DNA of 61,615 bases, from NCBI GenBank assembly GCA_051009015.1, contig JBPCWZ010000010.1, positions 1-61,615 of the forward strand, given 5' to 3'. Below the pieces are notes generated by a model. It saw only the letters and a program-made list of their open reading frames with translations. It ran no database searches and had not been told where the DNA came from. Position 1 is the stretch's first letter. Every line of letters begins with the position of its first letter. The position numbers were made by a program, and so were the translations under genes. This document shows, piece after piece, positions 11,193 through 14,200 of the stretch. This stretch comes from Gammaproteobacteria bacterium. Lineage in GTDB: Bacteria > Pseudomonadota > Gammaproteobacteria > Tethybacterales > Persebacteraceae.

Positions 11193-11273
11193 ATGCCGCT
11201 TTTTCGCTTGGCGGTATCGCGCTGGCGGTTGTCGGCGGGCGCGGTTTTGATATTGCTAATGGCGCTGAGCGCC
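11193..11273 (+). other. Sec signal peptide of the giant protein
   Basis: In MPLFRLAVSRWRLSAGAVLILLMALSA|EGD there is a basic n-region (R5, R10, R12) and a hydrophobic core AGAVLILLMAL. The cleavage site is of the small-x-small type (LSA). Confidence 0.6.
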
Positions 11274-14200
11274 GAGGGTGATGTCGCGGATGGCAAGGCA
11301 TCGCCTTTTGTTGTTGCATCATCGGGCGGCGCGGCGGCGGCGGGTTTTTCTTATGGCGATTGGCTGAAAGCGCGGCGGGCGTATTCGGACACCGCCGACA
11401 ATGCGCCAAAACAACAACAGGAAAAACCGGCGACCATCGGCAGTTTCTGGAGCGGTATTGCCGAAGATATCGGCGAGCGGGCATTGGAAAGAGTGCGCGG
11501 TTCGGTTTTGGGCGTGCTGCCGCAGGAGTCGGAGTTTCGCGATTTGCTGGTGCGTTATGGCAACGGCGAAGATGTCAGCATGGGCGATTGGCGGGAGATT
11601 CGCTTTGCCCGGTTGAGTGATGACATTCGCGGCGCGCCTTTGGCGTTGTATGCCGATGGCGAGCGGGCATTGGCGGATGCTTTGTCGGAAGCGGCGCGGG
11701 AGCGTTTGGCTTTTGTTCGCCGCGCGCGGGTGGATTTGCAAACTCCCCTCGGCGGTCGGCGGGGGCAGTTGGGTGTTGATGCGGCGGGTGCTTTGCGACT
11801 GACGGATGACGATGTCATTGGCTGGCAGTTGCGGGCTTTTGGCGGCGAGGACGATGCCGCAGGCGGCAATGCCGGTTTGTTTTGGCGGCTGGCGGTCAAT
11901 CGTACCGGGCTGGCGGGGGTGAATGTCTTTTTGGATTATGAGGAGGACGATGAAGCGGGCGGTTTTTGGCGCTGGTCGGTTGGCGGCGAATACAAAACCC
12001 GCTACGGCGGCATATCGGCAAACCGGTATGAAGTTTTGACGGAAGCGAGAGTTTTGGCGGACGGCAGCCGCGCATACAGCAGGGACGGGATAGACGCGGA
12101 TGCGGAGTTGTTTGTGCCGGGTTATGAGTTTGTGCGCGCGCGCGTGGGTTATTACCAATGGCGGGGCGAGTTTGGCGATGACGATGACGAAGGGTTTCGT
12201 TTCGGTGTGGCTTTTTTGCCGGGCGCCGGTTTGGAGTTTGGCGTGGAATATGACGAAAACAGCGGGGAGTGGGGCGGCAACTTGACATATTCGCGGCGCT
12301 TTGGCGCACCTTCGCCGTCGGCGGCAAGCGCTCCGGCGACATTTGACCCGCGCCGTCATTTCTTTGACGCGGTGCGGCGGGAGTATGGTCAGAGGATAAG
12401 CCGCACCGAGCAAGGCGGCAATCCGCTGGTGGCGAACTTGATATCCCTGCGGGCGGATGTTGCGGCGACGATACAAGCGGACGGGTTTTTGGCGACGGTT
12501 ACGCGCAGCGGCGATAACTTGTCGGACGGCACAAGCCGCTATGAGCGTTATCCGGTAATGCTGGCGCGGGATATTACCATAGAGGTTGGCGGCGGCGGAA
12601 GGTCCGTTGCGGCGGTGTTTCGTCAGGACAGCGGCGATTGGCTTTTGGCATTGGAAGACGATACGCGGGTGGCGTTTTTGCAGCAGGGGACTTTGCTGGC
12701 GGCGTATTCGGGCGCCGGAGAGGTGGACAGGGCGCGCGGTCGTCTGCCGGGGGTTTTGGTTGTGCCGGGGACGGTGACTTTGTATCTGGGCGGTACGCGT
12801 TTGGCTTTTGATTTGCGCGAGCGGCGGGAGGTGGCGGATATAACACTGCACGAAGGCGTTTTGACCATCGGCGGCGGGCGGTCGTCATCGCCGTCTTATT
12901 CGGTTGCGGTGCTGGCGAGTTCCCGGGTGTTGCTGGCGGATGATGACAACAACCTGATAACAATATCGTGCGACGACGAAGGGCACAGTTCGCAGCCGGG
13001 CGCGCAGGCGTTTTGTTCTTACGGGGCGGTTTTTGACGCCGATGGTTTTGCCGATGGCTTGTGGCATCTGGCGGCATCGCGGCGCGAAAGCGCGGCGGGG
13101 ACGATACGCATATCAACAAACACGCCGTCTTTGACTTTGTCGGCGGCGGTTGTTGAGGGTGCCGGCGTTATCGGCTTGCGGCGGTTGTCGGCGCAGTTGT
13201 TTGCGTTGTCTCTGGTCGGTGCGGGTGCCGGTGATATTGCCCGGGCCGGTTTGGTCTTTACCGAAAGCGGCGGCAGGTTTGCGCCGCAAACGCTCAGTTT
13301 GCGGATACAAGTGGCATCGTCATTGGCGGTGCAGGTGCGGCGGGCCGATGTCGGGTTATTGACGGAAGTGCCGGCTTTGGCGGTTGCGACTGTTGTCGGC
13401 ATTGGCGGCGGCGGCGGTTATGCCTACCGGCTGGCTGCTGCGCATGCTTTGTTTTCGCTGCGGCTGGCGGATGGTTTGGCGGTGGCGGATTATGTCAATG
13501 CCGCGTCATCGCCGGTTGTTTCGCCTTTGACGATAGCGGTGTCGGATGGTTTGAATACGGCATTGACGATAACGGCGTTATTTACCATAGCCGACCCGCC
13601 GCCGGTTTCCATCACTTTGGCGCATCGGGCGGCGATGGGCGTGGGGCAAGCCCTGCCGGTGGCGACTTTGCATGTCGGCGGCGGTTATGTGCGCTCGGCG
13701 TATACGCTGCAGGTTGCGGCGGGCGGTGCTTACGGCGGCATTGGCATGTCGGCATTGGCGGACGGCGGCGCGCAGATTATTCTTACCGCCGGTGCGCAGT
13801 CGGGTTTGATAACCATAACGGCGATGGCGGATGACAATCATAACAACACCGGCGCGGGGCTTGCGGTTTGGACTGTGCGGGTTGTTGATGGTTTGTTGCT
13901 GTCGCCGCCGCCTTTGTTTGCCGGAGTGCTGACAATCACAACGGACAATGCGGCGGGCAATGTCCCGCGCGATTTGGGCAGTTTTGTGGCGACGGGCGCG
14001 AACGGGGCTTTGGTTTTCACTTCGCAGTTGCCGCCGTATTTGCGTTTGCTTGTGCGCGGCGACAGCGCATTGTTGCGCTTGCAAAGCGCGCCGGTTGTCG
14101 CCGGTGTGATAACGGTGCCGGTAAGCGTGCGCGAGGATGTCATTAACGGGCGCGAGAGCGCGACAACGATAACTTTGGCGGTGGTGAATCCGCCTCAGTT

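Follow-up and report, generated by a model that had tools for sequence, protein, structure and literature searches.

How much passenger can one small outer-membrane barrel export? Type V secretion is regarded as the simplest export route: a single small barrel suffices, aided by the β-barrel assembly machinery (BAM), and the outer-membrane step uses no ATP. We investigated how far this route may scale in a 61,615-nucleotide stretch of DNA, hereafter the window, from a gammaproteobacterium of the Persebacteraceae, Tethybacterales (assembly GCA_051009015.1, contig JBPCWZ010000010.1, positions 1 to 61,615 of the forward strand). In the window, one intact gene encodes both a barrel and a giant passenger, and thus bears on the capacity of one such barrel. 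We consider it likely that the product is an inverse autotransporter (type Ve secretion) with an extreme passenger. The secretion type is known; what is new is the extreme passenger length on a type Ve barrel, which at more than 16,000 residues in roughly 160 domains exceeds characterised inverse autotransporters about six-fold. In the literature searched on inverse autotransporters and giant genes, no comparable giant member is reported.

One Open Reading Frame Joins Barrel and Passenger

The plus-strand reading frame that holds the gene is free of stop codons from position 11031 to 61613, the last full codon, and continues past the window end. Its first Met is an ATG at 11193, and the relatives P0001 and P0002 have the same start and the same MPLF residues. 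From this Met there are 16,807 codons with no stop; of the remaining plus-strand frames, one has 817 stops over the same span and the other 465. The seen part of the protein has a mass of 1,748 kDa and an isoelectric point (pI) of 5.06; all sizes given here are lower bounds (at least 16,807 residues, at least 1.75 MDa), as the frame leaves the window and the C terminus and the downstream genes lie beyond it. An earlier sequence-only reading, made from the letters of the window, had proposed a single passenger of more than 16,000 residues on a barrel, and this is what the frame encodes, with a passenger from residue 706 to at least 16,807.

The DNA of the giant reading frame contains no near-identical tandem or dispersed repeats, its sole recurrence being a short conserved motif at 60–80% identity; collapse or expansion of repeats during assembly is therefore unlikely in the seen part. 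In GCA_973515615.1, a public contig of 60,754 bp, 17.3 kb align with the window at 99.8% identity; over the gene's first 6.1 kb, start codon and barrel-to-passenger junction included, the two do not differ. The gene call on the public contig has the same start and reaches 15,999 residues before leaving the contig end, 808 codons short of the window's. This contig probably represents the same organism and is thus not fully independent support. Neither an exact search for the window-end sequence in JGI metagenome contigs nor a homology search with the last 1,500 residues of the frame gave a match; giant proteins seem irretrievable from the index used for the latter. A scan for the sigma-70 consensus 5′ of the start found no promoter-like site and was uninformative.

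The N-Terminal Part Is a Predicted Intimin/Invasin-Type Barrel

Pfam, AlphaFold2 and Foldseek together assign residues 175–366 (11715–12290, plus strand) to an inverse-autotransporter β-barrel of 12 strands. The Pfam family IAT_beta (PF11924) matches residues 159–379 (window 11667–12329) with an E value of 2e-17 and 64.1 bits (gathering score 22.3), covering profile positions 29–257 of 279. The NCBIfam models YchO, Inv and Ilp match weakly and below threshold, so the giant protein is not a named enterobacterial type. An AlphaFold2 model of residues 1–800, built with 18 family sequences, contains exactly 12 strands within residues 175–366, with block means of the predicted local distance difference test (pLDDT) of about 55–85. 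When the Protein Data Bank (PDB) was searched with Foldseek, the invasin β-domain 4E1T came first (E 7e-10), followed by the intimin β-domains 4E1S and 5G26; these three had E values from 7e-10 to 2e-8 and target-normalised template-modelling scores of 0.64–0.71, and all porins ranked lower. A family profile restricted to the barrel, run against 177,635 distinct PDB sequences, matched only intimin (1.7e-5) and invasin (5.4e-5) at E<0.01, with two unrelated chains at E 0.04–0.1; the full 800-column family profile had no match among the PDB sequences. The sequence-only reading had placed such a barrel at residues about 177–372 and had named the lack of both an IAT_beta match and a predicted barrel at about 150–400 as the finding that would speak against it; match and barrel are instead both present.

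Ahead of the barrel, residues 1–29 (MPLFRLAVSRWRLSAGAVLILLMALSAEG; 11193–11279, plus strand) were read by eye from the translation as a Sec-type signal peptide, MPLFRLAVSRWRLSAGAVLILLMALSAEG having a basic n-region, a hydrophobic core and a small-residue c-region, and its ALSAEGDV end is common to the closest relatives. The periplasmic N-terminal region that follows (residues 30–174; 11280–11714, plus strand) is predicted to be helical at a pLDDT below 50, and its GFSY-DWL and GSFW motifs also occur in the closest relatives. Residues 30–174 gave no match to LysM or any other Pfam family even at E≤1, in agreement with the earlier statement that no LysM-like domain is evident. Signal, barrel and C-terminal passenger are present in this order in the one polypeptide.

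A Conserved Motif and a Non-Repeat Neck Follow the Barrel

Between barrel and passenger, an alignment of 18 sequences and a helix in the model delimit a post-barrel motif, FDPRRHFFDAVRREYGQRI, at residues 384–402 (12342–12398, plus strand). Eleven positions are invariant in the 18 sequences (F384, P386, R387, H389, F390, R396, E397, Y398, Q400, R401 and I402), and AlphaFold2 predicts a short helix at residues 386–389, after the barrel, with moderate to low confidence there. By analogy with intimin and invasin, FDPRRHFFDAVRREYGQRI is a candidate for a pore-crossing linker with a plug helix.

The motif leads into a non-repeat neck of about 300 residues (residues 403–705; 12399–13307, plus strand), which lies outside the repeat profile of the passenger and is predicted to be β-rich, with strands at residues 461–607 (pLDDT about 50–69). 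Residues 593 and 608 of the neck form a sequence pair of Cys (SCDDEGHSSQPGAQAFC; window 12969–13016), and a Cys pair is also found there in most aligned relatives that reach the neck region. A non-repeat neck with a Cys pair had been foreseen from the sequence; the pair was confirmed, and the end of the neck had to be moved from 13380, since the array begins at about 13308 (residue 706–709).

The Passenger Is an Array of Cadherin-Like Domains

The passenger array begins at about residue 706 and extends to residue 16,807 or beyond (13308–61613, plus strand); it consists of β-sandwich domains of about 100 residues that are cadherin-like in the structural model described below. The repeat alignment was made from non-overlapping pieces of the array, and the first match of the resulting profile begins at residue 709. 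The copies are mutually 22–34% identical and fall into two subtypes that alternate. After iteration, the profile detected 106 units at a domain E≤1e-3, and relaxing the threshold to E≤0.1 raised the count to 125, leaving gaps that total 3,689 residues; assuming that the gaps contain similar units, we estimate about 159 units in all. The more than 150 domains claimed from the sequence alone are therefore reached only through this estimate, with 106 to 125 detected directly.

Pfam found nothing above threshold on the whole passenger, hints on the repeats were weak (He_PIG, SprB, Big_2 and Big_9), and Big_1 had no match in the passenger. We modelled two adjacent domains with AlphaFold2 from 34 internal copies and obtained two β-sandwiches with a mean pLDDT of 90.6. 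The best PDB matches of this model in Foldseek were the cadherin-like module of the staphylococcal adhesin SraP, protocadherins and cadherin-23. As modelled, the stalk is cadherin-like, unlike the Big_1 type of intimin, invasin, FdeC and YeeJ; Big_1, for which the sequence-only reading had proposed a check of the repeats, was not detected.

The array is interrupted by a non-repeat insert at residues 4911–5210 (25921–26822, plus strand), a 300-residue gap in the repeat profile with a sub-threshold match to the Kelch/β-propeller family PF24681 (E 3e-7, 30 bits, cut-off 50) and a Cys pair at 5142 and 5178. Judged from its sequence, it may be a non-Ig functional module within the stalk. The other Cys residues of the passenger also occur only in gaps of the repeat profile, as the pairs 2161/2189, 7237/7279, 12603/12605 and 16538/16541 (the Cys-bearing gaps being window 17514–18245, 32526–33233, 48456–49100 and 60681–60992). 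This confinement suggests that several small disulfide-bonded insert modules are spaced along the stalk.

On another reading, the barrel is of type Ve and the C-terminal part is not exported as one anchored filament. It might instead be retained in the periplasm, as in the ZirT-style translocator model, where substrates are bound by the Ig-like domains, or be cleaved into fragments that are released, or depend on extra machinery. In favour of this reading, the non-repeat inserts, including the Kelch-like one, could act as functional modules or as sites of processing, and no passenger of comparable size is known to be secreted as a hairpin. Heinz et al. have also proposed that in inverse autotransporters of the ZirT type the Big domains act in the periplasm (PMC4943183). 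Some 1.7 MDa in roughly 160 domains would, however, be hard to fit into the periplasm, no small substrate genes are visible beside the giant gene, and the neck followed by a tandem cadherin-like stalk resembles surface adhesins. We therefore regard a passenger that is not a single exported filament as unlikely, and retain an exported filament as the preferred reading.

Most Barrel Relatives Are Far Shorter, and Several Share the Architecture

Among 1.84 billion representative proteins, 366 matched the barrel at E≤1e-3. The longest among the best 150 of these has 7,134 residues and six more exceed 4,900, so that the giant protein is at least 2.4 times as long as the longest of these 150 database relatives. 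Characterised inverse autotransporters of E. coli range from 465 to 2,934 residues, with IatC of up to 2,965 (PMC6714894). The size ratio of about ten to characterised members that had been put forward earlier thus needs to be split: the protein is at least 5.7 times as long as IatC (2,934 residues) and about 17 times as long as intimin or invasin, and uncharacterised relatives reach 7,134 residues.

The GTDB genomes that contain the barrel subfamily are the gammaproteobacterial MEX2-MAG1 (about 20 loci), Ca. Zeuxoniibacter abyssi and Ca. Persebacter sydneyensis; Z. abyssi is described as a sponge symbiont of the Persebacteraceae, Tethybacterales (PMC11525543). Best-segment identity is 36–52% in the GTDB loci and 74% in a relative from the ENA, contig_26, described below. 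The invariant post-barrel motif is common to the barrel relatives and the neck and repeats occur in several, and the complete paralogues have 715–3,768 residues; the barrel-neck-repeat architecture is a family trait. A scan of JGI metagenome contigs for the barrel family found no relatives.

In MEX2-MAG1 (GCA_020027345.1, loci L004–L026) the roughly 20 barrel loci are separate and lie in one metagenome-assembled genome, a striking expansion of paralogues, two of which (L014 and L009) have in common a Cys-rich C-terminal domain of about 150 residues with no Pfam match. P0002, a truncated barrel protein of 517 residues, was considered as a barrel-only variant and rejected, its contig (L027; ENA ERZ25072283 ctg171519, 24.6 kb) being a palindromic, concatemer-like artefact. 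Segments with grpE, dnaK and IAT_beta recur in it in alternating orientation, a pattern that suggests a long read folded back on itself or a concatemer.

A Syntenic Relative Encodes about 22,000 Residues

A syntenic relative, which supports the size of the gene independently, lies on a 1.12-Mb contig (ENA ERZ25069559 contig_26, locus L001), in which a 658-residue IAT_beta gene, 67% identical, adjoins grpE-dnaK-dnaJ as in the window and is followed by an overlapping open reading frame of 21,436 residues at about positions 106,090–170,400 of the record. The window protein is co-linear with both, residues 1–626 aligning in one frame and 627–1919 in the next, and the shift corresponds to a 2-nt length difference from the window at L001 11880–11890. 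The relative therefore has the same architecture, with about 22,000 residues broken by one frameshift. Because 64 kb are open behind the frameshift, either the lesion is very recent or the sequence is in error there. A homology search with the first 1,333 residues of the 21,436-residue frame gave no match; again, giant proteins are seemingly irretrievable from the index.

The arrays of the two proteins differ, that of contig_26 containing recently amplified units whereas the window array is fully diverged. From L001 13000 to 21977, the contig_26 array comprises tandem super-repeats of about 2.05–2.10 kb (about seven domains) with DNA identity of up to 99–100%, which points to recent tandem amplification and to likely length variation among strains. 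A second IAT_beta gene lies in contig_26 a few kilobases from the giant gene (515 residues, L001 4052–5599, minus strand); its barrel is 36% identical to that of the giant protein and it has no counterpart in the window.

These observations bear on whether the giant reading frame is a working gene at all, since it might instead have arisen in assembly, or be a relic that is decaying or no longer expressed. Within the gene, both the window and the public contig come to an end, the contig_26 copy is frameshifted, the 99–100% identity of its 2-kb units makes them prone to misassembly, and L027 shows that a concatemer-like artefact exists among the contigs with this barrel. Yet 50 kb of the window are stop-free while the other frames contain hundreds of stops, and in the window array an assembler would find no long near-identical DNA repeats to collapse or expand. 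The internal repeats covary enough to yield a model at a pLDDT of 90.6, contig_26 keeps 21,436 codons open past its frameshift, which argues that the shift is either very recent or an error of sequencing, and the architecture is common to the paralogues. Taken together, a non-functional or artefactual gene is very unlikely, and an intact gene for an inverse autotransporter is the reading that we carry forward.

Export Route

Type I secretion exports the majority of the known megadalton adhesins (PMC6272769, PMC7493085). The passenger could accordingly leave the cell by this route, as SiiE, LapA and MpIBP do, with the barrel merely a retention anchor, and the C terminus and the genes downstream of the giant gene, where a type I signal and machinery might lie, are beyond both the window and the public contig. 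The protein has a Sec-type signal, however, and a bona fide inverse-autotransporter barrel, both of which are absent from type I substrates. In the 16,807 residues seen, RTX nonapeptides (GGxGxDxUx) number 0, compared with 0.2 expected by chance, and upstream of the giant gene, the only side that the window covers, there are no genes for ATP-binding cassette (ABC) or membrane fusion (MFP) proteins. The C-terminal ends of the five complete paralogues checked are also free of RTX and of other significant Pfam domains, and the neighbours of the P0007 locus include no type I secretion genes. The sequence-only reading had held that a C-terminal type I signal with adjacent ABC/MFP genes would overturn a type Ve assignment; the seen part has no RTX motif and the upstream side no such genes, and the C terminus and the downstream side lie beyond the window. 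Type I export of the giant protein is thus disfavoured, and we consider it extremely improbable that the barrel serves only to retain a type I substrate.

Several points weigh against type Ve export of the whole passenger. We know of no experimental precedent for the export of more than 16,000 residues by the type Ve route. The sole complete relative, that of contig_26, is frameshifted by 2 nt between neck and passenger, which could be decay. Outside the barrel, the model of residues 1–800 is of poor quality (its mean pLDDT is 47), and residues 384–402 are given a linker and plug role purely by analogy. The C terminus and the downstream genes are outside both the window and the GCA_973515615.1 contig, placing any C-terminal signal or cap beyond view, and expression, full-length translation and surface display are predictions from sequence. 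With these points taken into account, we still favour an inverse autotransporter.

Passengers of inverse autotransporters are secreted N-to-C as a hairpin, driven by the sequential folding of Ig-like domains (PMC6555100), and BAM acts with the assistance of the translocation and assembly module (TAM) in their biogenesis (PMC4943183). Applied to the giant protein, the N-terminal Sec signal would carry the chain over the inner membrane, and residues 175–366 would form the intimin/invasin-type outer-membrane barrel, inserted by BAM and possibly TAM if the route known for the family holds here. The FDPR-HFF-VRREY-QRI segment would, by analogy, cross or plug the pore. The neck would exit N-to-C as a hairpin, followed by about 160 cadherin-like domains with the C terminus last, the extracellular domains folding one after another to provide a ratchet with no ATP at the outer membrane. 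The product would be a covalently anchored acidic filament (pI about 5.1) of at least 1.75 MDa, with a length of perhaps 0.6 μm or more if extended.

Translation, Sec export and threading through the outer membrane could run concurrently as one pipeline, since the ribosome makes the barrel before the passenger and the passenger would leave N-to-C just as it is made. A single pipeline would explain why the inverse topology tolerates such length, unlike a topology with a C-terminal barrel, and would avoid the periplasmic pool of unfolded megadalton chain that is unavoidable with a C-terminal barrel. We see an even chance that the giant protein and its relative of about 22,000 residues are the largest known type V substrates (1.75 to about 2.3 MDa on one 12-strand barrel each), enabled only by concurrent N-to-C translation, export and threading.

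Should this be true, type Ve secretion would be a second route, beside type I, for building megadalton adhesins, and one that leads to micrometre-scale adhesins in animal symbionts; the giant protein would also be a natural extreme case in which to test the hairpin and folding-ratchet model. If the passenger is displayed, the mechanism of that model would have no practical length limit, and a coupling of synthesis and secretion across both membranes would be suggested. Most likely the protein would serve a host-associated gammaproteobacterium as an adhesin or a spacer, given its cadherin-like stalk and the sponge symbionts of the Tethybacterales among the nearest barrel relatives. The finding also points to an adhesin family, lineage-specific and rich in paralogues, among relatives of sponge symbionts, and this family may serve in attachment to the host.

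Comparison with Known Surface Proteins

Intimin (EaeA) and invasin (InvA) share with the giant protein an N-terminal signal, a 12-strand IAT_beta barrel and a C-terminal passenger of tandem β-sandwiches. Identity to their barrels is only about 20–23%, the giant protein has no LysM domain, its passenger is cadherin-like in place of Big_1 and about 17 times longer than theirs, and the subfamily-specific neck of about 300 residues with its Cys pair sets it further apart. LysM and a C-terminal lectin-like cap are features of many type Ve members and do not define the type. YeeJ (2,359 residues) and IatC (2,934–2,965 residues) likewise combine type Ve secretion with long repetitive Ig-like stalks; they have been shown to be expressed at the surface as adhesins (PMC6714894). 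Their LysM domain, Big_1 repeats and C-type lectin cap distinguish them from the seen part of the giant protein, which is at least 5.7 times as long. The RTX adhesins SiiE, LapA and MpIBP resemble it in having a giant acidic stalk of tandem β-sandwiches for reach and adhesion. In contrast to the giant protein, whose signal was recognised by eye and whose barrel is predicted, they have neither a Sec signal nor an outer-membrane barrel, and typically bear an N-terminal retention module and an uncleaved C-terminal secretion signal; their RTX repeats and C-terminus-first exit via ABC, MFP and TolC have no counterpart in its seen part or upstream genes.

Neighbourhood of the Giant Gene

The genes upstream of the giant gene encode an aminotransferase, tyrosyl-tRNA synthetase, GrpE, DnaK, DnaJ and an integrase. 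In the window (5454–11192) as in contig_26 (L001 6056–9811), the giant gene is divergent from the grpE-dnaK-dnaJ operon, and in the window the genes for tyrosyl-tRNA synthetase and the aminotransferase lie between the two. The conserved chaperone neighbourhood is probably plain synteny of close relatives. The window grpE (7357–8619, minus strand) encodes 420 residues compared with 231–256 in relatives, and the Pfam GrpE domain covers residues 220–376 only; the extra part is made of tandem repeats of 33, 45 and 66 nt (7398–8389), that is, a repeat-expanded extension.

Differences between the window and the GCA_973515615.1 contig cluster at 2631–2780 and 959–1034, with the window short of four bases at 2734–2754. 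In GCA_973515615.1 this site falls within a 543-residue DAHP synthase gene, which corresponds in the window to two overlapping minus-strand open reading frames (1651–2811 and 2325–3278), and this split could be a frameshift or an assembly error.

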